A stretch of 55,457 nt of DNA, taken from the IMG/VR virus record IMGVR_UViG_3300009156_000034, positions 1-55,457 of that record. The stretch is one strand, 5' to 3'. Shown here piece by piece: positions 9,668-44,725 of the stretch (the first letter of the stretch is position 1; each line of letters opens with the position of its first letter). A model generated the notes under the pieces. It saw only the letters and a list, made by a program, of their open reading frames with translations. It searched no databases and was not told the DNA's origin. The DNA is from a virus. The position numbers and the translations under genes are program-made.

Positions 9668-10453
9668 TCAGGTACCGAGTTTGGTCCGGTCCAGTTCTTC
9701 ACGAACAATGGCACGGACCTGTGCGGCGGTGAGCCCGCCACCACCGGTTCCCGAAGTAACCGCCTGCCGGATGGTCTCAATCTTCCCGGCCTCACTGTCC
9801 GGAGGCCGTGGAGCTGAGTCAAGGGTGAAGAACAGGAAATGTAGATCCTTGATCCACTGCTTTGTTTCGGCGTCCATGTCGTCTCCTGTGAGTAGTGCCA
9901 TGAAGTAGTCCCATGGGAAATTGGAGCCAGGATCCGTGTGGTCCGTGACGTTGAAGGCTTCCCGCAGGTCATTGTGTGAGGTGATCCCTGGGACCCATGC
10001 CTTCAGTTCGGCCACAGTCCGCTTCACCAATGGGATCCCGTACTTGGCCGCATCGCTGCGGATGATCGGCACCATCCGGTTGAACATTGCCACCCCGAAC
10101 GGGTCCAGCCATTGCTCCCGGGTCTGTGCTGCAAACCCGCACAGTTCCCAGTTGATGCCCCTGTTGTTCCCGGGCCGATTGCCTACAGTCCAGGCTGAGT
10201 TACGTAGCAGCACGCACTGGATGATGCTGTTGTCGTCGGCGGTGTAGTGCGAGGAGACGGAGCGGCCACCAGCTCCGGTGGCGAAGTAGTTGGCGGTCCA
10301 TTCCGCACAGTCAGGAGATTCAACCTTCTCCATATCGTGGATGACGACCCAGAGCGGGATGCCGTCCGGTCGTCCGATGGTGTACATCGGGCCACCGGTC
10401 GAGGTGCGGGCCTCGATGAACTGGAGTTCAGGGTGATCCGGGCTCTGCGTCAT
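9668..10453 (-). CDS. Endolysin, N-acetylmuramoyl-L-alanine amidase (amidase_2/PGRP type)
   Basis: WVVIHDME..AEWTANYF..SVSSHYTADDNSIIQCV..AWTVGN..NNRGINWELCGF follows the amidase_2 pattern. The ATG at 10453 is preceded by GGAGGACGACG; the longest ORF reaches 10501. Confidence 0.75.
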   Translation of the reverse strand: MTQSPDHPELQFIEARTSTGGPMYTIGRPDGIPLWVVIHDMEKVESPDCAEWTANYFATGAGGRSVSSHYTADDNSIIQCVLLRNSAWTVGNRPGNNRGINWELCGFAAQTREQWLDPFGVAMFNRMVPIIRSDAAKYGIPLVKRTVAELKAWVPGITSHNDLREAFNVTDHTDPGSNFPWDYFMALLTGDDMDAETKQWIKDLHFLFFTLDSAPRPPDSEAGKIETIRQAVTSGTGGGGLTAAQVRAIVREELDRTKLGT

Positions 10454-10572: not shown

Positions 10573-11238
10573 TCAGTATGTCAGCAGGTCATCCAAAGTA
10601 TCTATGTCGTCACCGTGCCCAGGTAGACCGCTGGTGTTGCCCCGTAGCCCTGCACGGGTCTGGTGATGCACCCAGTACCAGGACCGCCGCTTCAGGTGGA
10701 CGATCTTGGCTCCGGCCTCCATGCACCCGATCGTGAAGTACCTGTCCTCGCCGGAGTTCTGGTCATGACCCCTGTTCAATGCCTTGAAGCCAACTTCTTT
10801 GGCCAATTCGGTACGCACCAGGGTGGTGATGGTGGTCTCGATCGGGTTCTCCGGATCCCAGTCGTTCAGGTAGTGGGTGGGTGGGAAGACTGGGTCTTCC
10901 TCCCACACCTTGGTGCGTCCGTCCGAGAACTCTTGGAGCACCTTGAACCAGGAGTACACGAAGTCGGCCCCGGTCTCCAGGGCGTGCTTGATCAGCCACT
11001 CCAGGTGTTTGGGCATGAAGGCGTCATCGGAGTCCAGGAACGCCACCCAATCGGTCTGAGCCATCATCAGGGCTCGCTGACGGGTGGGTGCAGCACCTTC
11101 CTTGTCCACATCCACGGCAATGCAGTGAGCGTCCGGTAGGACGGTCTGGTCCCCCACCGACTTGCTCGCCCGGAGCAGGCGGCCGTTGCGCATCCGGGCT
11201 GGGTGCGTCGGTGTCACCACTGAGATTGTTGGCCTCAT
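10573..11238 (-). CDS. Family-2 (GT-A) glycosyltransferase
   Basis: ISVVTPTHPAR near the N-terminus and the DxD motif FLDSDDAF. Confidence 0.75.
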   Translation of the reverse strand: MRPTISVVTPTHPARMRNGRLLRASKSVGDQTVLPDAHCIAVDVDKEGAAPTRQRALMMAQTDWVAFLDSDDAFMPKHLEWLIKHALETGADFVYSWFKVLQEFSDGRTKVWEEDPVFPPTHYLNDWDPENPIETTITTLVRTELAKEVGFKALNRGHDQNSGEDRYFTIGCMEAGAKIVHLKRRSWYWVHHQTRAGLRGNTSGLPGHGDDIDTLDDLLTY

Positions 11239-11918
11239 CGGTCTGGCCTCCCGGTCTTACCCACCAACCACCCATCATGATGGATCGCGGTCACCTGCGG
11301 CACGAACACTCCCCGGAGGCCGGCTGCACGCCAGTCCCGGACCAGGCGGTGATCGGCGGCATTCTCCCCGTTGGCTGACCAGTTGGCCACCTGGAGGGCG
11401 TCCTTGTGACACATGATCCCGCCAGCGTCTAGGTGTCCCAGCTCGTAGCTCTCGTCCCCGATGATGTTCCAGAACGTCCCATTGCCCCGGAACTCCACCT
11501 GGCTCACCGACCACATGGCCTCGGCCTCCTGCATGGCCGCAACGTGGGTACTGACGTGGTGGGGCAGGAGTTCGTCATCGTCCCCGATGAAGCCGACGAA
11601 CTCACCCAGCGCCAGGAGGGAGCCCACGTACCAGGGGATGGCACCGACACTGGCCTCGGTGGTGGGGTTGCGCCAGGACTCATTGATTTCCACGAACCGG
11701 ATGTGGTCGTTGGGGCCTTCATTGATCAATACCCGCCTGAGGTACGGGTTGCGGTCGCTGACAATTACATGTTCAACGGCTGACCAGTCCTGATCAGCCA
11801 CGGACACAAGGCAGCGATCAATGAGCACCTTCTCACGGCCAGGAAACGTAGGGGTCACGATTGATACGAGCGGATCATCCAAGGTCTGCCTCCACCATGG
11901 TGTTAACGAGTGACTCAA
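11235..11918 (-). CDS. Family-2 (GT-A) glycosyltransferase
   Basis: VSIVTPTFPGRE and GFIGDDDELL. The start is uncertain; TTG at 11882 after GGAGG would reduce the overlap with the upstream gene. Confidence 0.7.
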   Translation of the reverse strand: MSHSLTPWWRQTLDDPLVSIVTPTFPGREKVLIDRCLVSVADQDWSAVEHVIVSDRNPYLRRVLINEGPNDHIRFVEINESWRNPTTEASVGAIPWYVGSLLALGEFVGFIGDDDELLPHHVSTHVAAMQEAEAMWSVSQVEFRGNGTFWNIIGDESYELGHLDAGGIMCHKDALQVANWSANGENAADHRLVRDWRAAGLRGVFVPQVTAIHHDGWLVGKTGRPDR

Positions 11919-12753
11919 ACTCTTGTCGAGGTTCCCAGTTCAGTCGAGGGTCCGGGGTAGCTGAAAGCACCTCAACGTCAGTGACGTTACCGATGTCGGG
12001 GTTTTCCCACACATAGTCCCGCCAGTACAGGCCGACACATTCAAAGGCAAACTCGACCCATTCCTCAACAGAGTGGGGCTCACCCGTGGACATGACGTAG
12101 TTGTCCGGGGGCAGGGTAGCCAGGCGTGGGAGCACGGTCACGAAGTCTGTGGCCCAGCCCCAGTCCTGCTTGCGGTGCAGTGACCCGAGCTGAAGTGAGC
12201 CCTGCGTCCCCTTCACGATGCCGGCCACCGCTTTGGTGACCTTGCGACTGAAGAAGGATTCTCCCCGGCGAGGGGAGTGGTGCCCTCCGAACACGGCGCA
12301 GGAGACGTGCAGGCCCCGGTTGCGGTAGTCGTCAGCGACCGTCTGGGCAAAGAGCTTGGCGGCACCGTACGGGCCGTGGTGGGCGATGGTGGACGCCTGG
12401 ACCACCCGAGCCTCCGGGCACTGGGTCCGTACCGCCTCGAATAGCCTCAGCGCCCCGAGCCCGGTCACCTCGGTGGTGAGTACCGGCTGCTGCCAGGCTA
12501 GGCCGGGAGAGGAGATGGCCCCCAGGTTGTACACCTCGTCCGGCTTGACCTGTGCCAGAGCGGCGTTGAGGGACTGCTGATCCAGCAGGTCACCCAGGAC
12601 CAGGTTGATCCCGGGTGCGGTCGCCTCTAGCCACTCCCGGCGTGGATTGTCCTGGCCTCGGAGTAGACCCCAGACCTCGTGCCCTTGCTTCAGGAGATGC
12701 TCAGCCAGGTAGCTGCCATCCTGGCCGGTGACTCCAGTGATCAGGGATCTCAT
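11875..12753 (-). CDS. gmd: GDP-mannose 4,6-dehydratase-like short-chain dehydratase (shortened form)
   Basis: MRSLITGVTGQDGSYLAEHLL, PDEVYNLGA, YGAAK (YxxxK) and GGHHSPRRGESF are the signature blocks of GMD. The ATG overlaps the upstream stop (TAATG). Confidence 0.8.
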   Translation of the reverse strand: MRSLITGVTGQDGSYLAEHLLKQGHEVWGLLRGQDNPRREWLEATAPGINLVLGDLLDQQSLNAALAQVKPDEVYNLGAISSPGLAWQQPVLTTEVTGLGALRLFEAVRTQCPEARVVQASTIAHHGPYGAAKLFAQTVADDYRNRGLHVSCAVFGGHHSPRRGESFFSRKVTKAVAGIVKGTQGSLQLGSLHRKQDWGWATDFVTVLPRLATLPPDNYVMSTGEPHSVEEWVEFAFECVGLYWRDYVWENPDIGNVTDVEVLSATPDPRLNWEPRQEFESLVNTMVEADLG

Positions 12754-13961
12754 TACAGCAGTACCGGTGCTGGGATCGGTACCAGCCAACGGCCACCCTG
12801 AGAAGCGAACAGGGTCTCCTGCTTCATCACCTCAGCCAGGTAGTTCCACACGAACATCACGTACACGTCGGGGGCTCGTGAGTCCGCTGACGGGGAGATG
12901 ATCGGGATTCCGGTGCCGGGGGTGTAGCGCCCGTGCTTGGTGGGGGTGGTGTCCACCATGTACTGGATCAGGTCAGGGGTGATGCCGCACCAGTTGAGCA
13001 GGGTGGTGGACTTGGCACTGGCCCCGTAGCCGGCCACTCGTTTCCCCTCGTACTTGTACTGGAACAGCATGTCCCGTAGCCGCTGCCGGATCCGGTCAGC
13101 ACGCCCTTGCAACCCGTCCAGGCAGTGTTCCTGGTTCAGCCAGTGCTCCTCCCGGAGCAGTTGGTTGACACTGTGATCCCAGTACCGGTTTCGCTTGATG
13201 ACCACCCGCAGCGAGCCACCTTGAGCATTGACCTGCTGCACCGAGGCAGGGGCCAACTCGTGGCGGGCGAGGATGTTCTTCAGGGAGGTGAGGGAGAAGA
13301 ACTGGCGGTGCTCGTGATAGACGTGGTCAATCTGGTTGCCGGTGATCAGGTCCACCACGTACTGGAACTCCACAATGGCCACACCGTAGGGGTGCAGCAC
13401 CAGCGACAGGCCCTCCACGAAGTCGTTTAGGTCAGCGACGTGGGCGATGACGTTGTTGGCAATGACCACGCCATGTTGCCCGTAGTTCTCCACGATGCGG
13501 CGGGCGGCCTCGGCTCCGAAGGACTCATGCCACACCTCAAGGCCGCTCTCGTGAGCCTTGGCTACGGGTCCAGCGGCTGGGTCAATGCCCAGTGACGGGT
13601 AGCCAGCCTCCTGGAAATGCTTGAGCATGGTGCCGTCGTTGCAGGCGATCTCCAGAACACCCATGCGAGCGATCCGGGGGAACGCCTTCATCACCCATTC
13701 GGCGTACGCCTTCTGGTTCTGCACCGCCACCCACGAGCTGCCGGTGTAGAAGCCGTAGTCGCCGGCCCACAGTTCCTCGTCCGGCACCACCTCAGTGAGC
13801 TGGATCAGGCCACAGCTATAGCAGCGAGCCAGACCCAGCGGGTACCACGTCTGCTCCACGTCAGGGCTGGTGGGGAAGTCGTCAGCCAGCGGGGAACTGC
13901 CGAGGTTCAGGACTTCAACCAGGGCATCATCCAGGCAGCTAGCACAATGGGTGCGTTTCAT
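12753..13961 (-). CDS. NDP-hexose C-methyltransferase-like enzyme (Zn ribbon, SAM-MTase and C-methyltransferase C-terminal domain)
   Basis: N-terminal CASC..CYSCGLIQL, SAM motif VLEIACNDG, NVIAHVADLN and HVYHEHRQFFS resemble TylC3/EvaC-type sugar C-methyltransferases. The ATG at 13961 overlaps the upstream stop (ATGA). Confidence 0.7.
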   Translation of the reverse strand: MKRTHCASCLDDALVEVLNLGSSPLADDFPTSPDVEQTWYPLGLARCYSCGLIQLTEVVPDEELWAGDYGFYTGSSWVAVQNQKAYAEWVMKAFPRIARMGVLEIACNDGTMLKHFQEAGYPSLGIDPAAGPVAKAHESGLEVWHESFGAEAARRIVENYGQHGVVIANNVIAHVADLNDFVEGLSLVLHPYGVAIVEFQYVVDLITGNQIDHVYHEHRQFFSLTSLKNILARHELAPASVQQVNAQGGSLRVVIKRNRYWDHSVNQLLREEHWLNQEHCLDGLQGRADRIRQRLRDMLFQYKYEGKRVAGYGASAKSTTLLNWCGITPDLIQYMVDTTPTKHGRYTPGTGIPIISPSADSRAPDVYVMFVWNYLAEVMKQETLFASQGGRWLVPIPAPVLL

Positions 13962-14581
13962 TTCGGACCCCACTTCGCCTGGTAGTACGCCTCAGCCTGT
14001 TGCCACTCAGTCTGACTGTCCTTCGACTTAAAGCCGAGCACGGTGTGGTGGAAGGTGTCAACATCAGCGACCACGACGCGTCTCTGGTACCCCCTGGCCT
14101 TCCGGCAAATGCCTACGTCGTAGCCATGGAACCCGGGTTGTGGGTCGAACCTGAGGAACCGGATGGCCCACGGGGAGAAGACCAGGATGCTGCCCTCTAG
14201 GGCGTCGACATCCCCGCTCCGCTCCCCGAAGTCAATCATCTGGGTCTCGATCTGCTGGTGCCCTACCGTGTCCCCGTTCCACCAAGCCAAGCCAGGAATG
14301 CCACGAGCGCCAGCCACTCCCACTAGTGCCACTTCCGGGTCCTTCAGGACCTCCAGGAACTTGGCCTCAGCATCCGGATCGATGATCTCCAGATCATCGT
14401 GGAGCAGAATCAAGGCGTCCAGGTCCTGGGGGAGACACAGGGTAAGGATCTTGTTGTAGACGGCGGCGATGGAATTGTGCCCTGAAAGGGCGAAGCAAGG
14501 ACCCTTTCTCCCTGCTGCCGGTAACACGTACCGGTAGAACCGGTCCCAGTCACCGACGCAGCAACCGTAGGCAATCATCAA
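13958..14581 (-). CDS. Putative GT-A-like glycosyltransferase (207 aa)
   Basis: The DxD-like LLHDDLEI and its position inside the sugar cluster are the only evidence, so this is a weak call. Confidence 0.45.
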   Translation of the reverse strand: MMIAYGCCVGDWDRFYRYVLPAAGRKGPCFALSGHNSIAAVYNKILTLCLPQDLDALILLHDDLEIIDPDAEAKFLEVLKDPEVALVGVAGARGIPGLAWWNGDTVGHQQIETQMIDFGERSGDVDALEGSILVFSPWAIRFLRFDPQPGFHGYDVGICRKARGYQRRVVVADVDTFHHTVLGFKSKDSQTEWQQAEAYYQAKWGPK

Positions 14582-14829
14582 GCCTCATCTAACACACAGA
14601 CGTTTTCAAACTTCTTGTAGGCGTCGATATAGGTAACCTTTGCATCACCGTTATAGGTGACCTCGTAGTACATCTGGTCTGGAAGAGTGGTGCTGATGAG
14701 GCACTTCCAGTTCTGGAGTGTCTTGGCGAACCAGACCACGTAGACCTCAAAGTCCACTGGTTCGTCAGACTTATCGAGCTTCCCCAAGATGTAGCTATGA
14801 ACCAATGCCTTAGCTTTTGTCTGATACAT
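14578..14829 (-). CDS. Hypothetical protein (83 aa) in a low-GC patch
   Basis: Clean ORF, visibly less GC-rich than its neighbours. VVWFAKTLQNWKCLISTTLPDQMYYEVTYNGDAKVTYIDAYKKF resembles small proteins I associate with low-GC Gram-positive phages. Confidence 0.6.
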   Translation of the reverse strand: MYQTKAKALVHSYILGKLDKSDEPVDFEVYVVWFAKTLQNWKCLISTTLPDQMYYEVTYNGDAKVTYIDAYKKFENVCVLDEA

Positions 14830-14853
14830 GCTTCTCTCCTCTAGTTACCACGG

Positions 14854-15501
14854 CTACCAGGGCCTAGGTCCCCACTTAGCCTCGAAAGCCAACGTGTCCC
14901 TCCCGATCACTTCCGCAGCCCACGGCCGGCTGCCGGTGAACTCGTTCGGGTGGATGTTGTGGACATAAAACCCGGGGACGGTCACCATGCCGCCGTTCTT
15001 CCTGGCCTGGAAGTCGATGTCGGTGTCCAGCCACCACCAGGCCATGGCCGGGTCCGGTCGCACCGGGGTCTTGATGTCCAACACAAAAGCCCAACCGGGC
15101 ATCCGTCCTGCGATGTCCCGATCGGGCTCTGACTTGAACCACTGCCTAGTACCACCACCGGAGCAGCCAATGGCGGCTCCGGTTTCTTTCATGCCCGCCA
15201 CTACGGCGTCGTACCAGCCGGCCGGGGGTGGGGCATCGTCACAGAGGAAGGCCACGTACCGGCCACCCATGGACTCCGCTTGCTCCAGCCCCTCCAGCCA
15301 GAGCTGGGCCAGGTTCGGTGGCTGGGTGGGCACGTAGGTGACGCTGACAGCGGTGGTGCCGTACTCCAGGTTAGCCAGGTCTACTGGCGGGTCTGAGGCG
15401 TTGTCCAGGACGAAGATTTCATCCACCTGGGGGGCTACGGCCGCGACGGTTTGGTGCAGTAGCTCAGGTCGGTTGTGGGTGATGATGACCGCACATTTCA
15501 C
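14854..15501 (-). CDS. Family-2 (GT-A) glycosyltransferase
   Basis: VKCAVIITHNRPELL and VLDNASD. The GTG at 15501 overlaps the upstream stop (GTGA); the longest ORF reaches 15549. Confidence 0.7.
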   Translation of the reverse strand: MKCAVIITHNRPELLHQTVAAVAPQVDEIFVLDNASDPPVDLANLEYGTTAVSVTYVPTQPPNLAQLWLEGLEQAESMGGRYVAFLCDDAPPPAGWYDAVVAGMKETGAAIGCSGGGTRQWFKSEPDRDIAGRMPGWAFVLDIKTPVRPDPAMAWWWLDTDIDFQARKNGGMVTVPGFYVHNIHPNEFTGSRPWAAEVIGRDTLAFEAKWGPRPW

Positions 15502-16535
15502 GGGTGTTCTATCTTGTACGCCTTCTCCCATGCTTCCCCCCACCTCCACGCTTGGTCCTGGTATGTCTGCGTCGCCATGTACTCTCTGCCGGCCTCAGCC
15601 TGCTCCTTGCGGAGCACGTCATCGGTCAGCAGGAGCTTCAGGTTGGCGTACCACTCCTTCGGGGTGTCGGCCAGCAGGCCACACCCAGACTCCCGGTGAA
15701 GGCGTCGGTACTCCTCCCTAGGTGATCCTACCCAGGGAACCCCCACTGCCATCTGTTCTATTGCCTTGAGTCGTGACTTGGAGGTGTTGAACGCGGTGGA
15801 GGCCAACGGTGCCAGGCCCACGTCGAAGGTGGCGGCGATGGTCTGTGCCCAGATGTTCAGCGGCACGGAGCCGACCGTATCCACCTCGTCCTTCAGGCGA
15901 GCTGCTAGCTTCACCTGGGACTTGCCACCCACCACCTTGAACGGGAAGCCCTCGTCAATCAACTTCTGGATCATGCCGCCGAGGACCTGGAGATCGTTCG
16001 GGTGTGACTTGGTGGTCCCGGCCCAGCCGAAGCACCCGGTCTCCGGCTTCTCGATCCCCAGGTACGCCCGGGGGACGTAGTTGTCCAGTACTTCACCCCG
16101 GCCGTGTCTGGCGTACACCTTCTGGAGCGCCCTGGTGGAGGTGGTCACGTAGGTGGCCGCCTTGCAGGACTCAATGGCGTAGTTCCAGGAGAACGGGGTG
16201 TTGGAGCGGGGCCGGTACGTCTCAAAGGCGACGTTGTTCGGGTGGATGGAGGACATGTCGTCGTCCATATCCACCACCACGGCGATCCCATTAGCCCGCA
16301 TCATTTGAATCATCTGTGGCTGAAGCGGGTGAGCAGGGCGTTGGAGCACGATCACGTCAGCGTCGGCGGGAACACTCACCGAGGCAAGCTGCTGCGACCC
16401 ATCCTCCTTGGTTCCTACCTTGGCCAGGAAGCCGGTCTTCTCGTTGGGCGGCATGATGTTCACGTCATGGCCCTGCTTACGGAGAACATCAGCCGGCCAG
16501 ATCAGGCGGTCAATAGTGGCCACACCCGTACGCAT
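15498..16535 (-). CDS. GT-B fold (GT1/GT4-like) glycosyltransferase
   Basis: Two-lobed pattern. The C-terminal lobe reads GWAGTTKSHPNDL..FKVVGG..DVGLAPL..NTSKSRLKAIEQMAVGVPWVGSP. Confidence 0.65.
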   Translation of the reverse strand: MRTGVATIDRLIWPADVLRKQGHDVNIMPPNEKTGFLAKVGTKEDGSQQLASVSVPADADVIVLQRPAHPLQPQMIQMMRANGIAVVVDMDDDMSSIHPNNVAFETYRPRSNTPFSWNYAIESCKAATYVTTSTRALQKVYARHGRGEVLDNYVPRAYLGIEKPETGCFGWAGTTKSHPNDLQVLGGMIQKLIDEGFPFKVVGGKSQVKLAARLKDEVDTVGSVPLNIWAQTIAATFDVGLAPLASTAFNTSKSRLKAIEQMAVGVPWVGSPREEYRRLHRESGCGLLADTPKEWYANLKLLLTDDVLRKEQAEAGREYMATQTYQDQAWRWGEAWEKAYKIEHP

Positions 16536-16585: not shown

Positions 16586-17383
16586 TCAGGAAGGCTCACC
16601 CACCAACTGGAAATCTGAGCCAATGTCAAAGTTCCCGGCCTGGGGGAACACGGTCAGGCTGATGTAGGGACCGATGGCGTCGTACACCCCACCACCGTAT
16701 TGGGCGACGAAGGCGGCAACCGCCGTACCTATGGCCTGCGAGCCGTGAAGCCACCCCAGTGCGGTGGAGCTTGGCCCCACAACTTGGGTCACGTCCCAGC
16801 CGACGAAGGTCACTTCACCGGTTCCGAATCTTCCGGTCGGTGTCGATGTCCCCGGGCAAAGCCCAATGACACCTGAGGTCTGGGCACTTGCCGACACAGC
16901 GGTTGGCGTGATGTTGGTTGCCTGCAAATACTCATACGAGTAGACGCCGGCAGAGCTTCCATTGATCCGCAGGTTCATGGTCTGAACCGTGACGGCGTTG
17001 TCGGAGCGCACCCTGTATTGCAGCTTCAAGGTGCGTATGCCGACAGGGATGTTGTTGAAGGTGACCGAGGCCGTGGCACTCGCCATGGTCTGCCTGGCTT
17101 CAAACCTGCCGACCCGCCCAATGATGAAGTTGCCTGAGGGCGGAACCACGATGACGTACACCCGTTGGCCCGACCCGAGACTGCCTATTGTCGAGGTCAT
17201 GTCGATGGGGACTGAGTCACCGTCATAGATGGCACTGATGGCCGTGGGGTCGGCCCCATTGATCACGGTGGCAAGGCGCAGCGCCCACTCAATGCCAAGC
17301 CTCTGAGCATTGTCCACAACGCTTTGAGCCCCGATACCGATAAGGTCCGGGGCTATCTGTGTCGGGTCCAGTTCAGGTTGCAA
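16586..17383 (-). CDS. Minor tail protein (265 aa)
   Basis: Called from its position after the tail genes. Gly/Thr/Ser-rich beta-type sequence. Confidence 0.5.
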   Translation of the reverse strand: MQPELDPTQIAPDLIGIGAQSVVDNAQRLGIEWALRLATVINGADPTAISAIYDGDSVPIDMTSTIGSLGSGQRVYVIVVPPSGNFIIGRVGRFEARQTMASATASVTFNNIPVGIRTLKLQYRVRSDNAVTVQTMNLRINGSSAGVYSYEYLQATNITPTAVSASAQTSGVIGLCPGTSTPTGRFGTGEVTFVGWDVTQVVGPSSTALGWLHGSQAIGTAVAAFVAQYGGGVYDAIGPYISLTVFPQAGNFDIGSDFQLVGEPS

Positions 17384-18437
17384 GGGTTCGCCTCAGCAAA
17401 TGGTTCATGGTGCCGCCTTCCACTAACGCCATCGACCATCCAAGCTCCACCCAGTTGACCCCCTGCCAGCGGATGACGTTGTAGGAGTCGTGGCGAGGAT
17501 CAGGGGCGGTGGTGAGACTGACCCGGGAGAAGACGGCCTGTCGATTGATCAGGCCCTGGGCTACAGCTTGAGCCTGGGTGCTGTCGGATAACTGAAGGTC
17601 CACCACCTCTGGGACAGAGAACCCACGATTGACCTCCGAATGAGGAGCGTTCGGGGGCACCGAGGCGATACCGATTGCTGGTGTGTCAGGGGTGATGGCT
17701 GAGTTGGAGATGACGATTATCTTGTTGGGGGCAACGAGCAGGTCATCATCTTCGATGATGTCTTTCCGCACCACCTTGTTGCCGGCGTCGAAGTTGAAGT
17801 CCGGGACCTTGTCGGCCGGGTCGAAGGTTCGGATGAAGTGCAGCTTGGTGTCGTTACCGAACCAGGGCGAGAACCAGTCGCCGGAGATTGACAAGGACTG
17901 GAGCATGGCACCCCTGTAGGTACCCACTCCCCATGCCTCGGCTGAGATGTAGGGCGAAGCCTCTATGTCCAGAACGACCGGTAGTCCAGTAACAATGGTC
18001 TGGACCACGGTGGCTACATTCTGACCAACCCCGTTGACCCCCACCTCGGTCTGCTGGTCCACCAGGGCCATTTCGTCAGCCAGTGCCGAGCTGCCCAGCT
18101 TCCCTGAAGTGAACACTTCACGGGTGTCGTTGGTCCACATGTAACGACCCAGGGGGTACTCGACCCCGCTGGGGAAGGTCATGAACACGTCAACCCGGTC
18201 ACTGATGGGGTTGACGGCTGCCGTGTCCGCTATTCCCAGCTTGAAGTCCAGCTTGCGTTTGGTGATGCCACTGGTCTCGTGGGTCAGGGTGGCACCACGG
18301 ATCGGGGTAATGTCCCCGAGGTGTTCACCGGTAACCCCGTTGGTGAGGGCGAACCGGAAACTGGCCTTCCGCTGACCGACCCAAGGATCCAAGTCCAGGA
18401 GAGGGTCATGGGGGAAGTTGGTCAGCGGTCCCGTCAT
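17373..18437 (-). CDS. Minor tail protein (354 aa)
   Basis: Called from its position in the tail module; overlaps both neighbours. Confidence 0.55.
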   Translation of the reverse strand: MTGPLTNFPHDPLLDLDPWVGQRKASFRFALTNGVTGEHLGDITPIRGATLTHETSGITKRKLDFKLGIADTAAVNPISDRVDVFMTFPSGVEYPLGRYMWTNDTREVFTSGKLGSSALADEMALVDQQTEVGVNGVGQNVATVVQTIVTGLPVVLDIEASPYISAEAWGVGTYRGAMLQSLSISGDWFSPWFGNDTKLHFIRTFDPADKVPDFNFDAGNKVVRKDIIEDDDLLVAPNKIIVISNSAITPDTPAIGIASVPPNAPHSEVNRGFSVPEVVDLQLSDSTQAQAVAQGLINRQAVFSRVSLTTAPDPRHDSYNVIRWQGVNWVELGWSMALVEGGTMNHLLRRTLAT

Positions 18438-21400
18438 GGGTCCACCGGGCTCGGGGTGTCGGTTACCTCGATGATGCTCACCGGAGCCAGGTACAGCCTC
18501 CGGTCACGCAGCACCCTGCCGGACGGCACGATGACCGTGGACAGCCAGCGGTTCCCATCTTCATCCCGGACGCAGATGTAGCTCACGCTATCCCACGCCA
18601 TGTCACGCAGGGACCGGAAGTCGGCAAGGGTCTCCGGCGAGATGGCAGCCGCCTGCACCAGCACCGTGCGCTGGAATGTCTCACCACCTCGTTCCAGTGG
18701 TCGGAAGGCGGTGAAGAAGTCCCGGTCGTACATGGCCTGGAGCTTGACGAACTCGGACTCCGGGAACGTGAAGTTCTCCTCGACCTGCTGATCCATCCAC
18801 ACTGACGAGTAGGCCAGGTTGATTGATCCGTCTTGTCTCTCATTGGAGGTAAAGATGAGGATATGACCGTCCTCCAGGCAGCCCCCTGAGACGCCCGGAG
18901 CGGGGATGGTGGAGGTGACCGTGGAGGACCATGACCCGTAGAACCCGTACACATCAACGTTCCTGATTCGGTACGAAGACTCAATCCCAACCCGGGCCTC
19001 GTAGTCGTTGAACCCGGTGATGGCGGTGGAGGAGGCCAGCATGATGGTCTGCCAGTCGGTCTCGACCGTGTCCATGCGCTGAAGCTCGTAGGCACCGAAC
19101 CAGTATTGAGGTGGCTTGATGGTCAGGTTGTCGAACAGGTAGGTGTTGCCGGTTCCACCTACGTCACGGATATAAACCCCAGCCAGACTGCCAGTAGTGA
19201 GACCGGTGTCCGTTGTTTCAAGGTTCCACATCGCCGGCTCAGGTTCGCCGGTCACCCATGCCTTGGCTTTGAGTATTGACCCCTTGCCCAGGAACCTGAT
19301 CGTTATGGCACCTCCGGACCCTCCGACTATGGGCAAGGTGACTGGCCCAACGACAAAGTTGAGGACACCGGCAACACGCTTAATGATTGCTATGGCCGTC
19401 GTCCCGGCGTTGTCGATCTCTAACCTGGCGGCGTAATGGTTGTTGATGTCTGTGTATCGGCCAGCCGCTCCGGGTCGAGCCGAGGTCCCAACTACGACAT
19501 TGTTGAGCACCGTGTCAACGGTGACATCAAAGTCTGTACCGACACTGAGGACGGCGAATCTGTCCGCAGAGGACGCCGTGACAACCGACCCCTGAGTCCC
19601 ATTAACTGAAAACTCTGCCGTGCCGACAGGAATCGTATAGGTCCCACCAATGTCAGCATCACCCCACGATCCAGCGGCGACGGTGCGCTCAAAGGCATCA
19701 GTGGCATAACTGGTGTTAGGCGGGAACGGCCAAGTGATCCGGTTGTACACGATGTCGGTGGGTATGCAGCACGGATCAACCCCGCAGTCCTGGCCTATCC
19801 CGGTGATGGCCTGCGAGAAGGTGGTGACTGCGAACCCGGTGATGGTTGGCATGTCCTGGGCGAAGATGATGAAGGCGTCGGAGCTGTTGTCATCGGAAGT
19901 ACCGGTGACCCAGGGGGAGCCCACACCTTGCGGGATCCAGCCCATGTTGATGATGGCCCCAGAAACCGGCTGACCATAGGTGGCTGCACTAAGGAGCTGG
20001 GTGCTGGGGACGAAGTTGAACGGGTTGCCTGGTGTACCGGAGACTGCCGGGGCGCTGGCACCCAGGATCTCCCAGCGGTTCCCGGCCTTCTCGCCGGCAG
20101 CGGACCAGACAAACTGCGGCTGAGTGCCGGCACCCATGGTGGGTGCGGTGTCGAACCGTAGGGTGACCTCCTTCCAGCCGTCGAGGATCTCGTCCAGGGC
20201 GTCAAATTCAACCGGAGTGATGTCCACCGACCGGGTCGCACCTGTGAGGGTCAGGGGAACCGTGGTGTCCCCAAAGCGCCTGGCGATGTAACGGACCCAG
20301 GGCCATGAAGCTGAACCTCCGGCGAGCCCGTCATGGATCTCCTGGGTGACGGTGGCAGTTCCGTACACCTGACCAATGGCCTGGCGACCGTAGACCTGAG
20401 GCTCCACCAAAGGGGCACCAGTGGTCCCGTGCAGGGTCAACTGACCATGTATCGGGGTGTCTACCTTCTCGAAGGTGTCACCGAGCCGGTCAGCGAGCGG
20501 GAACGGTATATCCACCTCTACGCCTGGATGGGAGGGGATGGAGTACAGCTCCCGGAGGCCGTTGATGAGAGGGACGCCGGTCTTGAGGCTGTCGTCGTAG
20601 TCAACCTCACCAGGGTTCACATAGGACAGGGTGGCGGTGTAGTTCCCGATCGCCAGTGACGGGTCAGCGGTGAAGGTCAGGTCCCGCATGGTGATGATGT
20701 TGACGCCTAGGTTGTACGGGTTGAACCGCTTCCCCCCGTACGCCACCCGGTTCTCTTCGCAGTAGATGACCCGCATCGCCAAGTAGTCCAGGGATCCTTC
20801 CGCATTGGTGAGTGCGGCCGGGATCTGGAAGGTGATCCGGATATTCTGTCGGTTGACGTTGGGGAAGCTGGGCTCGAACCGGAGCAGGTCGACGTACCTC
20901 CACGGCATCCGGCTTGTGTCTGCGGCGGTTGGAGCAAGAGTTGGGTCCCAGAAGTTGTTGACATCGCCCAGGTTCAGAACACCGATCACCTGATTGGCAC
21001 CAGGGTTGCCGGAAGAGAAGCCAGGGATGGTTGCCAACTGGGCCAGTGAACCGGCATTGGACAGGAACGCTGGCCCCACAAAGTCGATGTCGGTACCGAG
21101 GTCGTTCCTCTGTTCCACGATGGTGGCAAACGAGCCCGGGTCCGGATTCACGAACGGGATGTTGTCCCCGAGGGCATTGGTGTCCGTCAGGTACCCGGCG
21201 TAGAGCAGGGACACGTTCAGGATCCGCTTGTTGGCCAGCATCGGACCTGCGGAACTGACGTTGAACCAGAAACTCACCCGCTGGGCGCTACCTGCGTTGT
21301 TCAGGAAGCGGATCCGCTTAGAGGCCAGTCCTGGCTGGGCTACAGCGTCGGCAGCATTGTCGCCGAAGACGGTGACGTTTGAGCCGGTGACGGCACCCAG

Positions 21401-21673
21401 GGAAACCGGGATGATGACCTGCTTGATTGGGCCGGTGAGATCCTCCAGGCCGGCTGGATAGATGTTGACCAGTGCAGTCTGAAAGGCGTTCTGGGCAGCC
21501 GGTAACTGGGTGGTGTAGAACCGGGCGTCACGAACAGTGCGGGCGGTATCCAGTCGGAACGATGTTCCTAGCTCAATGGCGTTAACGGCCGGGGAGAATG
21601 GCAGGTTCTCTTCCCGGATCGGTACGAACTCCTGACCCAGGATCTGCGGCACGTAGGGGTTGTAGCTACCCAT
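18434..21673 (-). CDS. Large tail protein (1079 aa) with a jelly-roll/LamG-like region, an FN3-like region and a Dit-like C-terminus
   Basis: Starts 2 nt after the tape-measure stop. Internal segment ..YAARLEIDNAGTTAIAIIKRV..GVYIRDVGGTGNTYLFDNLTI (lectin-like), then an FN3-like stretch, then a C-terminal ~200 aa that resemble distal tail proteins. Confidence 0.55.
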   Translation of the reverse strand: MGSYNPYVPQILGQEFVPIREENLPFSPAVNAIELGTSFRLDTARTVRDARFYTTQLPAAQNAFQTALVNIYPAGLEDLTGPIKQVIIPVSLGAVTGSNVTVFGDNAADAVAQPGLASKRIRFLNNAGSAQRVSFWFNVSSAGPMLANKRILNVSLLYAGYLTDTNALGDNIPFVNPDPGSFATIVEQRNDLGTDIDFVGPAFLSNAGSLAQLATIPGFSSGNPGANQVIGVLNLGDVNNFWDPTLAPTAADTSRMPWRYVDLLRFEPSFPNVNRQNIRITFQIPAALTNAEGSLDYLAMRVIYCEENRVAYGGKRFNPYNLGVNIITMRDLTFTADPSLAIGNYTATLSYVNPGEVDYDDSLKTGVPLINGLRELYSIPSHPGVEVDIPFPLADRLGDTFEKVDTPIHGQLTLHGTTGAPLVEPQVYGRQAIGQVYGTATVTQEIHDGLAGGSASWPWVRYIARRFGDTTVPLTLTGATRSVDITPVEFDALDEILDGWKEVTLRFDTAPTMGAGTQPQFVWSAAGEKAGNRWEILGASAPAVSGTPGNPFNFVPSTQLLSAATYGQPVSGAIINMGWIPQGVGSPWVTGTSDDNSSDAFIIFAQDMPTITGFAVTTFSQAITGIGQDCGVDPCCIPTDIVYNRITWPFPPNTSYATDAFERTVAAGSWGDADIGGTYTIPVGTAEFSVNGTQGSVVTASSADRFAVLSVGTDFDVTVDTVLNNVVVGTSARPGAAGRYTDINNHYAARLEIDNAGTTAIAIIKRVAGVLNFVVGPVTLPIVGGSGGAITIRFLGKGSILKAKAWVTGEPEPAMWNLETTDTGLTTGSLAGVYIRDVGGTGNTYLFDNLTIKPPQYWFGAYELQRMDTVETDWQTIMLASSTAITGFNDYEARVGIESSYRIRNVDVYGFYGSWSSTVTSTIPAPGVSGGCLEDGHILIFTSNERQDGSINLAYSSVWMDQQVEENFTFPESEFVKLQAMYDRDFFTAFRPLERGGETFQRTVLVQAAAISPETLADFRSLRDMAWDSVSYICVRDEDGNRWLSTVIVPSGRVLRDRRLYLAPVSIIEVTDTPSPVDP

Positions 21674-21674
21674 G

Positions 21675-23669
21675 TCACATGGTCCTTATCTGGAGTCGGG
21701 TGTTCCGTGCCGCGATGGCGTTGGTGATCCCACGACCGGCTGCCATGCCGGTCATCTGTGCCTGCTCCTGTGTAGGTACTGCTCCCTCAAAGCCCACCCT
21801 CACTGAGCCCGGACCGAAGATGATGTTTCCTGTCGCCTGGGAGCTGGCGGCGGCGAGGGCTGGGGTCTCCATCTGCATACCGGTGATCAGTCGCTGGATG
21901 ATCCTCTGTCCACCCTTGAGTGGATCACCCTCGCCGGAGAGGGGTCCGATCTTGGCGGGAGATTTGGGAAGACTGTCACCGATCTCGGCACCAACAGCGA
22001 ACATGGCGAACCGGAGTGGCCCAGGAATGGTGTCCAGGATTCCCTGAGCCATCCTCTGGACGAAAGTCCTGCCCGCGTTGTACATGAAGGTACCTATGTT
22101 GGCGATAATGTCCCTCAGTCGGTCAGGTATCCCGATAACCAGTTGTCTGATGGTTTCGAGTCTTTCTGCAACTGCCTGCCTGGCCATCTCGAAGGCTGCT
22201 GTGAAGGCACCGTAGACTCTCGGCCCCGATGACCTTACCCACTCGATGAACCCTTCAACGATGTTGGGGATCGTCTCAGTGAAGAACTTTCCGATCCCTA
22301 TGACAAGGAACGCTAGGAAGTCGCCAATGTACTTCAGAATGGCGAGCCATGACAGGAACCCTCCTATGAGGATGACTGCTACGACAGTAAGGCTGAGAAG
22401 CAGTCCCAAGAGAGCCCTGATGCTGTCTTTACCGAAGTCGGTCTTGAGGAAGATGATGATTTGATCAATCAGGAACATGAGCTGATCAATCATCTCCTTG
22501 CCGCCTGCCTCGTCAACCACCTGAGCAAACACCTTCAATGCCTCGATGGTCTTACCCAGAAACGCCCATGTTGCCTTCAGGGTCTCCTTCATGTCTTCGA
22601 GCCAGGCCAGGAACTCCTTATCTGCCGACAAACCCGAAAGCCATTTGCCGAAGTCGGCAATGCCCTTAGCGACCCCGGCACCGAACCAGTCCAGGAAAGG
22701 TTTCACCGCTATGCCAAGCTCAGTGAAGCCTTCAAGAAGGGAGAGCAGGGCGGGGCCAAGAGCCTGGATCCATTTTTCAGTTGAGTCGATAAGACCTTTG
22801 AAGAACTCCTGGAACCGGGGGTACTCGAAGAAGGCCACCAACTGACTGAACAAGAGGCCGAACGCGGTGCTGAGCTTGTCCACCGCCAGGACCAGGTTAA
22901 ACCGCATGAACTTGGCGAAGCTGGCAAGCACTGTGCCGAACGCAGTGAAGAAGTTTCGCTGAGCCAGGTCACTGAGATCGTTGAAGAGTTCCCTCAGTGG
23001 CAGCAGGCTCCGGATGAACTTCTGTAGCGGTGGGCTTAGCCCCTCAAGTGCCTTCTCGAACTCCTTCGGGGTCTTGGCAGAGAAGGCTTTAGCTATTGCC
23101 TCACCCACACCCCTGAAGGCAAGAAACAGGACTCCCGCCTGTAGGGCAATGGCACCGATGAGGCTCGGGATTAGGTACAGCAGAGAGATCAGGCCGTTGA
23201 CCGCCTGTACCGCAGCAGCGATCAGGGCACCAATGGCACCGATGAACGGGAGCAGGAGGACGATCAGGGGTCCACGGCCGGAGACGTTGAACCCGGCACC
23301 GATGCCGGAACTTACCGCATCACCGACCCCTCGCTCCAGGGTGTCGAGGGGGCCACCAGGCTTGAAGACCCGAGAGAAGGCTCGTTCGATCTCATCCGGG
23401 ATCAGGCCCTCGTCAACGTCGAAGTCGACATCCGCCTTGATCTTCCGTTTGCCGAACTCCCGCTCCACGGACCTGGCAATGCCCGGGATCCGGCTCTTGA
23501 GACGCCCCCCCATACCGTCAGCCATGGCATCACCCATGTCGCGGCCGGCGTCCCTGAGATCATCGTCAGCGGCCTCGGCTCCCCTGCGGACACCTCTTTC
23601 AAGCTCACCGGGAACAGCAGAGGTGTCGGCATGGGCCTCTACCCAAACCCTGCCGGCTGGCAGCGTCAC
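21675..23669 (-). CDS. Tape measure protein (664 aa)
   Basis: Sits downstream of the chaperone pair. Long helical, Gly/Ala/Ile/Leu-rich sequence with several hydrophobic segments. Confidence 0.8.
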   Translation of the reverse strand: MTLPAGRVWVEAHADTSAVPGELERGVRRGAEAADDDLRDAGRDMGDAMADGMGGRLKSRIPGIARSVEREFGKRKIKADVDFDVDEGLIPDEIERAFSRVFKPGGPLDTLERGVGDAVSSGIGAGFNVSGRGPLIVLLLPFIGAIGALIAAAVQAVNGLISLLYLIPSLIGAIALQAGVLFLAFRGVGEAIAKAFSAKTPKEFEKALEGLSPPLQKFIRSLLPLRELFNDLSDLAQRNFFTAFGTVLASFAKFMRFNLVLAVDKLSTAFGLLFSQLVAFFEYPRFQEFFKGLIDSTEKWIQALGPALLSLLEGFTELGIAVKPFLDWFGAGVAKGIADFGKWLSGLSADKEFLAWLEDMKETLKATWAFLGKTIEALKVFAQVVDEAGGKEMIDQLMFLIDQIIIFLKTDFGKDSIRALLGLLLSLTVVAVILIGGFLSWLAILKYIGDFLAFLVIGIGKFFTETIPNIVEGFIEWVRSSGPRVYGAFTAAFEMARQAVAERLETIRQLVIGIPDRLRDIIANIGTFMYNAGRTFVQRMAQGILDTIPGPLRFAMFAVGAEIGDSLPKSPAKIGPLSGEGDPLKGGQRIIQRLITGMQMETPALAAASSQATGNIIFGPGSVRVGFEGAVPTQEQAQMTGMAAGRGITNAIAARNTRLQIRTM

Positions 23670-30656: not shown

Positions 30657-30832
30657 CACTCAGCCTTAGCGGTTGCGTAGTGCAGCACGGCCTGAGCCCA
30701 GACAGGGAGGTCCTTGACCGTTTTAGCTTTTTCTCCCGCCTTGATGAGCTGGAGCAGGCCAGGATCGTCGGTCTCCAGGTCCAGGACTGCCTTGACCACG
30801 GCGATTGCTCGTGAAATGTCAGGTGTTATCAC
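30656..30832 (-). CDS. Small protein (58 aa), not in the ORF track
   Basis: Hand translation from a GTG that overlaps the polyvalent-protein stop (GTGA): VITPDISRAIAVVKAVLDLETDDPGLLQLIKAGEKAKTVKDLPVWAQAVLHYATAKAE. Confidence 0.45.
   Translation of the reverse strand: MITPDISRAIAVVKAVLDLETDDPGLLQLIKAGEKAKTVKDLPVWAQAVLHYATAKAE

Positions 30833-43504: not shown

Positions 43505-44725
<1,221 letters not shown>

Follow-up and report, generated by a model that had tools for sequence, protein, structure and literature searches.

What product does a phage make with a block of glycosyltransferase (GT) and deoxysugar genes placed between its tail and lysis genes, and where does that product go? The question is raised by a stretch of 55,457 nucleotides (IMG/VR record IMGVR_UViG_3300009156_000034; hereafter the window), which derives from an uncultured soil phage, probably a lytic actinobacterial siphophage. 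One unbroken run of genes was confirmed to fill positions 10573–16535 of the minus strand. A first-pass annotation had described seven contiguous genes; the run is contiguous, but it holds eight ORFs, a small gene at 14578–14829 having been missed. The flanks are as that annotation gave them. Upstream, transcribed in the same direction, lie three minor-tail genes and the tape measure gene (16586–23669, minus strand; tape measure at 21675–23669 with PHROG tape-measure matches), and downstream an Amidase_2 endolysin marks the start of the lysis cassette (9668–10453, minus strand; publicly called with PF01510; best match to a PHROG endolysin family at 8e-25).

Gene starts were revised using the overlap pattern between the genes and the public annotation of the identical contig. 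All seven enzyme genes, each on the minus strand, have Pfam matches above the gathering cut-off. The first, which follows a gap of 50 nt containing a GGAGG site, encodes a GT-B glycosyltransferase of 345 aa (15498–16535; PF13692, Glyco_trans_1_4, 6.5e-8; PF13524, 1.4e-5; phrog_7162, 1e-31). Three GT-A enzymes of family GT2 were found: GT2c (231 aa, 14854–15549; PF00535, 1.7e-7; DDA motif at residue 104), for which an alternative GTG start at 15501 would give 215 aa, GT2b (215 aa, 11235–11882, in the ORF list 11235–11918; PF00535, 1.5e-6; DDD motif at residue 113) and GT2a (221 aa, 10573–11238; PF00535, 7e-12; phrog_14775, 8e-37; DSD motif at residue 69). This agrees with the three family-2 GT-A enzymes and one GT-B enzyme of the first pass. 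Its ‘weaker GT-A-like’ protein, here GT25 (206 aa, 13958–14578, in the ORF list 13958–14581), is a clear member of PF13712 (Glyco_tranf_2_5; 1.9e-11, 44.5 bits against a cut-off of 27). Between GT25 and GT2b lie an NDP-hexose 3-C-methyltransferase of the TcaB9/TylC3/MtmC type (402 aa, 12753–13961, in the ORF list 12753–13973; PF08421, PF13489 and PF08484) and a short, GMD-derived extended SDR, designated sGMD (292 aa, 11875–12753, in the ORF list 11875–12789; PF16363, GDP_Man_Dehyd, 3e-63 in two stretches). The ATG of sGMD at 12753 has one base in common with the methyltransferase stop. The cluster showed no internal terminator or promoter signal and no terminator enrichment, and none of its proteins has a transmembrane segment.

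The remaining gene (14578–14829, minus strand) encodes a DUF6275 protein of 83 aa (PF19791, 3.6e-30). It is a compositional outlier with a GC content of 46.8%, against 60–64% in its neighbours, and is missing from the orthologous clusters. Within the region, blastn matches in cultured phages were limited to this stretch. The gene is probably an inserted moron, outside the sugar pathway.

The assignment of the C-methyltransferase in the first pass was borne out, as the enzyme is of the TcaB9/TylC3 type with all catalytic residues kept. It consists of a Methyltransf_13 zinc domain, a SAM methyltransferase domain and a Methyltransf_14 C-terminal domain (4e-45). Full-length matches were obtained with the structures of TcaB9 (3ndi, 2.8e-69), a KijD1-type enzyme (5t64) and MtmC (4rv9), the latter two at about 1e-68. 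The residues aligned to Y76, H181, Y222, E224 and H225 of TcaB9 are all present, as are the four zinc cysteines in two CxxC pairs. Given this conservation, a deoxy sugar with a C-methyl branch is a plausible product.

Every related module has the C-methyltransferase, and it neighbours sGMD and GT2b in the window and in the loci L005, L009, L010, L011, L012 and L309. The triad was met repeatedly in uncultured soil phages, each time in a late structural operon, but was not found in 50,697 deposited phage records. In L312, L313, L307 and L310 a canonical GMD fills the slot of sGMD between the C-methyltransferase and GT2b. Syntenic orthologues of the upstream tail genes precede the cluster in L005, L009, L010, L012, L309, L312 and L313, the last two thus combining a canonical GMD with the tail-gene architecture of the window. 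In L011 and L307 the module lies between capsid and connector genes, whereas in the window it lies between tail and lysis genes; in all, it was found in at least three phage architectures. GT2b directly follows and overlaps sGMD in all short-form loci and follows the canonical GMD in L312 and L313. It was found in 244 environmental clusters and gave no tblastn match over the 50,697 phage records. From this arrangement, GT2b would be the glycosyltransferase that works with the C-methyltransferase and sGMD, the tailoring pair. The other glycosyltransferases have orthologues as well: those of GT-B occur in L005, L009, L010, L012 and L309, where GT2c orthologues stand directly after the tail genes, and GT25 has one in L009 and distant ones in L011 and L307.

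The first pass had called the SDR GDP-mannose-4,6-dehydratase-like. Membership of the GMD family stands, but the enzyme is not an ordinary GMD, being shortened and remodelled in its active site. Its best structural match is the GMD of P. aeruginosa (1rpn, 39% identity), with a gap of 17 residues and STSE changed to STIA. The deletion falls after the catalytic Thr and before the YxxxK motif. All 67 short clusters have Ala for the Glu of T-S-E and Ile or Leu for the adjacent Ser (T-[IL]-A). FNHESPRR has become GGHHSPRR (NHE to GHH), RDWG has become QDWG and RPADV has become N/Q-x-TDV; the four motif changes co-vary over the 67 clusters. The short forms, at least 67 metagenomic protein clusters, constitute one clade, which shows the short SDR to be a derived state of single origin. 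Among 19 diverse members there is no variation in the Wierenga motif, the T/S-Y-K triad or the SPRR arginines, and two histidines, H126 and H159, are newly invariant. An AF2 model of sGMD (pLDDT 93.8) superimposes on GMD with a TM score of 0.94. Against the NCBIfam gmd model TIGR01472 sGMD scored 194.8 bits, less than half of the 415-bit cut-off; short forms as a group scored 145–195 bits and phage long forms 339–350. Two identities were rejected: a canonical GMD or ordinary 4,6-dehydratase, in view of the 17-aa deletion, the Glu to Ala change and this score, and an orthologue of RMD, as identity to 2pk3 is only 22%. By its sequence, sGMD is probably a C4 oxidoreductase of an NDP-sugar pathway.

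Which C4 reaction it carries out decides how far the phage provides its own sugar. Tentatively, we slightly favour over a dehydratase the reading that sGMD is the otherwise missing 4-ketoreductase of the pathway, specialised from an ancestral phage GMD and now taking a branched 6-deoxy intermediate; the 4-keto sugar would then come from a host 4,6-dehydratase. The conserved C5 base of the dehydratases is the Glu of T-S-E (PMC3584063), which the change to T-[IL]-A removes, and intrinsic 4-reductase activity has been described for several GMDs (10.1101/854612; PMC3584063). Neither does the window encode another SDR, nor the cluster a recognisable 4-ketoreductase, which leaves sGMD as the sole candidate, and in L010 an additional RmlB-like dehydratase gene adjoins sGMD. 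The hydrophobic substitutions and the Asn to Gly change in the NHE motif would suit a 6-deoxy, C3-branched substrate. Against a 4-ketoreductase counts that a phage with a reductase only would depend on a host dehydratase. Moreover, MtmC-type C-methyltransferases are able to reduce C4 themselves, and since 4rv9 is among the matches of the window enzyme, a separate reductase may be unnecessary.

Somewhat less probable is that sGMD has remained a GDP-mannose 4,6-dehydratase with a remodelled, Glu-independent site, possibly bifunctional with 4-reductase activity. His126 or His159 could stand in for Glu as the C5 base, and the module would be independent of the host, sGMD providing the 4-keto substrate of the C-methyltransferase. 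The occupation of the canonical GMD slot by sGMD, both within the architecture of L312 and L313 and within a second one (L011 against L307), fits this reading, as does the single SDR, long or short, of each minimal module. L009, with sGMD and an RmlD-like mini-reductase, mirrors L312, where such a reductase accompanies a canonical GMD. The invariant triad, NADP motif and SPRR arginines and the new histidines also agree with a dehydratase, and a self-sufficient module would spread more easily over at least three architectures. However, to our knowledge every characterised NDP-hexose 4,6-dehydratase has acid/base residues in the two places that follow the catalytic Thr (TDE, TSE, TDK), where all 67 short clusters have Ile or Leu and Ala, and the crystal of the human E157Q variant (6gpk) holds unreacted GDP-mannose. 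The 17 residues lost from the active-site loop, the low TIGR01472 scores and the separate dehydratase-like gene in L010 argue in the same direction. The phage dehydratase that the first pass had proposed as the source of a 4-keto-6-deoxy intermediate is thus doubtful, the score not reaching even half of the gmd equivalog cut-off; of its claim that the phage supplies its own activated-sugar tailoring, the phage-borne cluster with a tailoring pair is supported, whereas the dehydratase step is not supported in the form given.

We give about an even chance to the region being a late, fully cytoplasmic cassette that makes a C-methyl-branched 6-deoxyhexose and transfers it, probably onto virion proteins. 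Its conserved core would be the TcaB9-type 3-C-methyltransferase, the GMD-derived SDR and GT2b as dedicated GT2. The C-methyltransferase would methylate C3 of an NDP-4-keto-6-deoxyhexose, sGMD would perform the C4 redox chemistry, GT2b would transfer the 6-deoxy-3-C-methyl-hexose (evalose or virenose type) and the four other soluble glycosyltransferases would build the rest of the oligosaccharide. Glycosylation of a virion protein would take place in the cytoplasm, either ahead of assembly or in its course. We infer the substrate nucleotide, the order of the steps, the sugar and the acceptor; descent of the methyltransferase partner from GMD implies a GDP-6-deoxyhexose. The late, virion-linked character is suggested by the location between tail and lysis genes or, in L011 and L307, between those for capsid and connector, by the lack of internal terminator or promoter signals and by the lack of transmembrane segments.

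By analogy, the acceptor is probably a virion protein. Phage glycosyltransferases are reported to glycosylate capsid and tail-tube proteins in the mycobacteriophages Che8, Corndog and Myrna (PMC12363180; PMC4351075). The window enzymes have no significant sequence similarity to Che8 gp108–110 or Corndog gp36–38, so this tie is one of analogy only. Capsid and tail proteins, named as targets in the first pass, remain speculative; no Ser/Thr-rich tails or extensions were found in the capsid and major tail proteins. Another of its candidates, the (S/T-P)n linker of the beta-helix protein, follows an N-terminal membrane anchor, an arrangement that points to export and fits poorly with modification by soluble cytoplasmic enzymes.

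The lack of an obvious acceptor sequence in capsid and tail proteins would also fit a cassette that acts, from the cytoplasmic side, on a precursor of host envelope glycans and leaves virions undecorated, a reading that we consider unlikely. Soluble GT-A enzymes can use lipid-linked wall-polymer precursors, as does TarP of a S. aureus prophage, and a wall teichoic-acid-like polymer, a rhamnose-type wall polysaccharide or a glycolipid could be modified in this way, masking receptors, blocking superinfection or preventing adsorption of progeny to debris. The cluster adjoins the lysis cassette, and GT2a and GT2b have weak NCBIfam matches to polymer glycosyltransferases of the TuaG, WcaA and PglI types, but these fall far under the cut-offs. 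The cluster has no flippase, polymerase or membrane protein and is co-oriented with, and tightly packed into, the late structural operon; in L011 and L307 the module even stands between capsid and connector genes. The ORFs of at least 150 aa include no integrase or repressor, which makes lysogenic conversion unlikely. Glycosylation of hypermodified phage DNA bases against restriction, well known from the GT-B and GT-A enzymes that glucosylate T-even DNA, is very improbable even with a DNA methyltransferase in the genome, as no dCMP/dUMP hydroxymethylase-like gene was found among ORFs of at least 150 aa, the genes belong to the structural operon rather than to an early or replication region, and five glycosyltransferases with a branched-sugar pathway far exceed the needs of DNA glycosylation.

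Among known systems, Che8 (gp108–110), Corndog (gp35–38) and Myrna resemble the window in having soluble glycosyltransferases in or next to the structural operons of actinobacterial siphophages. Their cassettes often include a methyltransferase, of the O-type and not the TcaB9-type C-methyltransferase of the window, and lack nucleotide-sugar tailoring enzymes. In searches of phage records, GT-B, GT2a, GT2b and GT2c had no matches in Mycobacterium phages. True homologues were found in the GT-MT-GT cassette of the Streptomyces Zukoviruses: GT2a is 45% identical to KimJongPhill gp107 (1e-48) and Zuko gp106, and GT2c is homologous to Zuko gp108 and KimJongPhill gp109 (2e-32 for the latter). GT-B is 37% identical to the glycosyltransferase gp165 of Arthrobacter phage Atuin. 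Actinoplanes phage phiAsp2, the closest cultured relative (46% identity in the capsid protein), has a trio of glycosyltransferase, O-methyltransferase and glycosyltransferase (pas33–35) in the same post-tail slot. Where the Zukovirus and phiAsp2 cassettes have one small or O-type methyltransferase between the glycosyltransferases, the window has GT25, the C-methyltransferase, sGMD and GT2b, and unlike in those cassettes a GT-B gene adjoins the GT2c/GT2a pair. Zuko, KimJongPhill and phiAsp2 have neither a C-methyltransferase nor a GMD relative, and no homologue of either enzyme was found in any cultured actinobacteriophage record.

The tailoring enzymes have their counterparts elsewhere. TcaB9, TylC3, KijD1 and MtmC have the three-domain architecture of the window enzyme, with full-length matches of about 1e-69, but the characterised members belong to antibiotic pathways of actinomycetes, with dTDP-2,6-dideoxy or 3-amino sugars as substrates, whereas the window gene is viral and its partner GMD-derived. 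Canonical GMDs and sGMD have the GMD-like fold, the Wierenga motif, the T/S-Y-K triad and the SPRR arginines in common. Viral genes of the GMD family are also known from chlorovirus PBCV-1 (GMD/GMER) and from cyanophages, the PBCV-1 GMD being bifunctional and feeding capsid glycosylation; unlike sGMD, these GMDs are of canonical length, retain Glu as a catalytic residue, lack a C-methyltransferase partner and belong to viruses of other hosts. The logic proposed for the window is that of the route to virenose (6-deoxy-3-C-methyl-gulose) in the LPS of Coxiella burnetii, for which GMD, a TylC3-like 3-C-methyltransferase and a 4-reductase were proposed in silico to act in turn on GDP-6-deoxyhexose (PMC3539893). 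That route is bacterial, with separate canonical GMD and reductase candidates and an O-antigen as product, whereas the genes of the window belong to a phage.

Eight co-oriented ORFs on the minus strand, overlapping or closely spaced, fill the interval from the last minor-tail gene to the endolysin (10573–16535). Three of them encode GT2 glycosyltransferases of family PF00535 (GT2a, 10573–11238; GT2b, 11235–11882; GT2c, 14854–15549), with scores of 46, 28.6 and 31.8 bits respectively (cut-off 23.3). A further GT-A enzyme, GT25 (13958–14578), was assigned to PF13712 (44.5 bits, cut-off 27) and a GT-B enzyme (15498–16535) to PF13692 (33.4 bits, cut-off 27) and PF13524 (25.5 bits, cut-off 25). The set is completed by an SDR of the GDP_Man_Dehyd family (11875–12753) and a three-domain C-methyltransferase (12753–13961). 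The first-pass annotation had described a seven-gene cluster between the tail genes and lysis; the placement proved correct and all seven enzyme assignments scored above the Pfam gathering threshold, but an eighth ORF, encoding a DUF6275 protein, had been overlooked. A DxD-type motif was present in all four GT-A proteins (DSD69, DDD113, DDA104 and DD62), and no membrane segments were found in any of the eight cluster proteins. As in the Che8/Corndog-type system, the glycosyltransferases are soluble and lie beside the late structural operon. A promoter and terminator scan gave no signal above shuffled background.

Upon comparison of the 6-kb region with 50,697 phage records, megablast returned no match and the sole match in blastn was the DUF6275 gene. 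This gene (14578–14829, minus strand, 83 aa) lies inside the glycosyltransferase cluster with a GC content of 46.8%, compared to 60–64% for its neighbours and about 61% for the genome. It is missing from all orthologous clusters and shows 72–74% nucleotide identity to genes of Streptomyces phage and even Faecalibacterium phage. It was treated as an inserted moron; small, mobile and low in GC, the gene is unusually conserved. GT2b has no homologue in the same 50,697 deposited phage records and is represented by 244 environmental clusters.

Full-length matches (~1e-69) link the C-methyltransferase to TcaB9, a KijD1-type enzyme and MtmC. The TcaB9/TylC3 architecture consists of an N-terminal zinc domain with four cysteines, a SAM domain and a Methyltransf_14 C-terminal domain, and all three were detected above their cut-offs (PF08421, 1.7e-14; PF13489, 4.8e-14; PF08484, 4.3e-45). 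Both CxxC pairs are conserved in the alignment with TcaB9. In the phmmer alignment to 3ndi, whose chain numbering is offset by +2, the positions aligned to TcaB9 Y76, H181, Y222, E224 and H225 were identical in all five cases; the row of 4e2y carries the E224Q mutant. We take these five residues to be the catalytic ones, with reference to the mutant structures of the Holden laboratory (PDB 4e2w–4e33), which also figure among the matches. The public gene call of the enzyme begins four codons downstream of the start of the 406-aa ORF. Homologues were found in just eight of the 50,697 phage records, at 30% identity or less and none in an actinophage. A C-branched sugar had been proposed from the first inspection of the cluster, and this apparently intact TcaB9-type enzyme is, at the level of sequence, its strongest single support.

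The SDR (292 aa), designated sGMD, has the P. aeruginosa GMD (1rpn) as its best PDB match (5e-58). The Wierenga motif of extended SDRs and the S/T...YxxxK triad are both present, and an AF2 model (pLDDT 93.8) superposes on GMDs at TM 0.94. In the alignment with 1rpn, 17 residues that would separate the catalytic Thr from the YxxxK motif are missing from sGMD, leaving a gap, and STIA stands in place of STSE. The best 120 homologue clusters comprise 67 short and 53 long, canonical-length forms, with four motifs that co-vary perfectly with length. The long-form [ST]SE (53/53 clusters) corresponds to [ST][IL]A in the short forms (67/67), FNHESPRR to GGHHSPRR, RDWG to QDWG and RPADV to (N/Q)xTDV; the change from FNHE to GGHH was seen in 58 of the 67 short clusters, with retention of the Arg pair. 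Because the gap is shared by 67 short clusters, together with the co-varying motifs, it is not an assembly accident. The short forms make up one clade in a neighbour-joining tree. Among 19 diverse members, G7, T9, G10, G13, Y129 and K133 are invariant and S/T122 nearly so, and the SPRR arginines and two new histidines, H126 and H159, are invariant as well. Several ENA, JGI and Logan samples also contain near-identical contigs that encode sGMD.

The Glu replaced in sGMD has been described as conserved in dehydratases, where it takes the proton from C5 (PMC3584063), and the E157Q variant of human GMD was crystallised with unreacted GDP-mannose (6gpk). Against the NCBIfam gmd equivalog TIGR01472, sGMD scored 194.8 bits, compared to a cut-off of 415; other short forms scored 145–195, phage long forms 339–350 and a bacterial-type homologue 419.7. 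Because of the gap, the STIA sequence, the low gmd score and the absent Glu, sGMD was not filed as a GMD, and the original label of GDP-mannose dehydratase was abandoned. Identification as RMD was also rejected, with RMD 22% identical and ranked 32nd, and GMD much closer. sGMD is classed as a GMD-derived, putative C4 oxidoreductase. The Glu-less short GMD derivative is a distinct enzyme subfamily, and the searches made returned no member outside phage-like contigs. A scan of 185,579 reference prokaryotic genomes with a degenerate HGPYGAAK motif, meant to trace the host through prophages, gave 94 matches, of which none was a short-form GMD.

Across related gene neighbourhoods, the C-methyltransferase and the SDR form a fixed pair. 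The usual order in contigs with a tail architecture like that of the window (L005, L010, L012/L295 and L309) is tail genes, GT2c, a GT-B-like gene, the C-methyltransferase, variable genes, sGMD, GT2b, GT2a and GT-B. In L009, as in the window, the GT-B orthologue follows directly after the tail genes. Locus L011 has another architecture, with the C-methyltransferase, sGMD and GT2b located between capsid and connector genes, and the module of L307 is likewise placed. Two phage contigs of 127–130 kb, L312 and L313, have their tail genes arranged as in the window and carry a canonical 319-aa GMD (HASSSEMYG, FNHESPRRG; 9045–10004 in L313) in the sGMD slot, flanked by the C-methyltransferase on one side and a GT2b homologue on the other. 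Because this GMD fills the same slot, sGMD is a derived positional orthologue of the canonical phage GMD. A canonical GMD is combined with the C-methyltransferase and a different GT2 in L307 and L310, and with two C-methyltransferase genes, without a GT2b homologue, in L311. Of the 80 loci listed in a scan of IMG/VR, one was of the short form (L012); match length and identity marked the rest as ordinary GMDs.

Locus L311 is a 158-kb contig (JAWVGZ010000155.1, GCA_040384205.1) of jumbo phage or cellular origin. A very large sugar-modification cluster surrounds its 317-aa GMD, with the two C-methyltransferases, a TylF-type O-methyltransferase, several epimerase/SDR genes, a cupin, a UDP-glucose-dehydrogenase-like gene, GT4 and GT17. 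Additional SDRs occur sporadically. An RmlB-like protein is encoded in L010. RmlD-like "mini" SDRs of about 215–230 aa adjoin the C-methyltransferase in L009 (7872–8516) and L312 (8381–9070); with the catalytic Thr and the YxxxK motif only about 10 residues apart, they are a second case of shortened sugar SDRs in these phages. No cupin- or RmlC-type epimerases were found among the unannotated small ORFs of the related modules.

Five soluble glycosyltransferases are encoded in the late operon of the window, along with a C-methyltransferase that is intact and an SDR that is conserved and competent for redox chemistry; C-methyltransferase, SDR and GT2b together form a conserved triad. The observation made in the first-pass annotation was confirmed with corrections, and its interpretation is partly supported. 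The ancestry of the SDR and the canonical GMDs in sister modules suggest that the donor is a GDP sugar, for which an in-silico GDP route to virenose offers a parallel case (PMC3539893). In the proposed pathway, the C-methyltransferase would methylate C3 of an NDP-4-keto-6-deoxyhexose and reduction at C4 would follow. The resulting 6-deoxy-3-C-methyl-hexose, perhaps evalose, virenose or a related sugar, would be transferred by GT2b and the glycan extended by the remaining glycosyltransferases.

For sGMD itself, the role of 4-ketoreductase has a little less than an even chance. To our knowledge, every characterised NDP-hexose 4,6-dehydratase has its acid/base catalysts at the two positions that follow the catalytic Thr, and both are hydrophobic in sGMD. 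The pathway has no other reductase, GMD scaffolds are able to reduce C4 (10.1101/854612; PMC3584063) and in L010 a separate dehydratase-like gene has been added. If sGMD is a reductase, it became one independently of RMD. A remodelled 4,6-dehydratase is somewhat less likely. In its favour are the standing of sGMD as positional orthologue of the canonical GMD, the single SDR in minimal modules of short or long form alike, the parallel between L009 and L312 and the new invariant histidines. The window holds no second SDR or dehydratase.

The window represents a near-complete siphophage genome. Its 55,457-bp contig is also present in public metagenome collections, where GT2b maps to a JGI contig of just this length. 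Its head genes include a terminase, a portal, a MuF-like gene and a 578-aa capsid protein; the tail and lysis genes a major tail protein (26545–27255), a tape measure, minor tail proteins and an Amidase_2 endolysin; and the other genes a primase/polymerase, RusA, ParB-like proteins and a DNA methyltransferase. Neither an integrase nor a repressor turned up among ORFs of at least 150 aa, and the phage seems to be lytic. Judged by the capsid protein, Actinoplanes phage phiAsp2 (46% identity) is its nearest cultured relative, with Gordonia, Mycobacterium and Microbacterium phages more remote. As these relatives are actinobacteriophages, an actinobacterial host was assigned. No LysB-like esterase was seen beside the endolysin, pointing to a host that lacks mycolic acids.

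Several other genes of this phage deserve mention. At its N terminus, the capsid protein (28379–30115, minus strand) carries an extension of about 120 residues that includes an acidic (E/D-P)n linker EPDPEPEGDPEPEPDPEPEP; this is probably a scaffold or delta domain fused to it. The Cys content is unusually high in several head and connector proteins. A 2368-aa ORF (30829–37935, minus strand) separates the MuF/portal-like gene from the capsid gene and contains an ADP-ribosyltransferase toxin-like domain (aa 942–1075), a NUDIX domain (aa 1514–1629) and segments resembling endonuclease VII; its product may be a giant virion or ejected protein of the polymorphic-toxin type. On the plus strand, a transposase-like protein of 388 aa (3256–4422, phrog_4285) and two adjoining ParB-like proteins (51075–52657) were located.

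Virion proteins, modified in the cytoplasm, are favoured as the acceptor on several counts: structural operons repeatedly house the module, every enzyme is soluble and the phage is apparently lytic. Che8, Corndog and Myrna provide the precedent for virion glycosylation (PMC12363180; PMC4351075). However, neither the capsid nor the major tail protein has an evident Ser/Thr-rich acceptor tail, and the glycosyltransferases have no detectable kinship to the Che8 or Corndog enzymes, with best pairwise E values of 0.001–0.005 in a 13-sequence database, the level of generic GT2 enzymes, and no Mycobacterium phage match in tblastn. A beta-helix protein between the terminase and portal genes (43505–44725, minus strand; no PHROG match) had been suggested as a target. 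Its N-terminal hydrophobic anchor precedes a (S/T-P)n linker of about 55 residues, which suggests an exported or membrane-anchored protein; being probably exported, it is an unlikely substrate. A TarP-like action on wall-polymer precursors is a less likely but live rival, whereas glycosylation of DNA is very unlikely, as no hydroxymethylase-like gene was found among the window's ORFs of at least 150 aa.

We put forward, as a speculative proposal that is more probably wrong than right, that a mobile three-gene module of soil actinophages (C-methyltransferase, GMD-derived SDR and dedicated GT2) caps virion glycans with a 6-deoxy-3-C-methyl-hexose, and that a single conversion of a canonical GMD gave rise to a new, minimal SDR class that has lost 17 residues and the Glu. 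Enzymes of this class would be the first NDP-hexose 4,6-dehydratases to lack the T+1/T+2 acid/base pair, or else would descend from a dehydratase that became a reductase specialised for branched sugars. sGMD is a natural experiment in SDR evolution, showing either a new mode of NDP-hexose dehydration or a dehydratase cleanly converted into a reductase, and with a GDP-sugar-directed C-methyltransferase it could give a compact three-gene tool for branched deoxy-sugar glycoconjugates. The module would also mark an unnoticed class of auxiliary genes in soil viromes.

Glycosyltransferase cassettes of phages and virus-encoded GMDs are already known. A siphophage module joining a TcaB9-type C-methyltransferase, an SDR of GMD lineage and a dedicated GT2 appears to be undescribed: in a full-text literature search that combined bacteriophage with C-methyltransferase and TylC3, neither of the latter two terms occurs in any of the ten papers listed, and neither tailoring gene is present in deposited actinophages. 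Virion glycosylation has been reported to shield mycobacteriophages from antibody binding, an effect tied so far to glycosyltransferase cassettes that apparently use host nucleotide sugars. A phage that tailors its own donor would display a glycan that the host may not make, with possible effects on adsorption, on immune recognition and on how stable the virion is in soil. GT2c and GT2a have homologues in Streptomyces Zukoviruses, where these form the outer genes of a GT-MT-GT cassette. In the simplest scenario, the branched-sugar module was added to a Zuko-type cassette that occupied the post-tail slot. In phiAsp2, the same genomic slot is occupied by a trio of glycosyltransferase, O-methyltransferase and glycosyltransferase.
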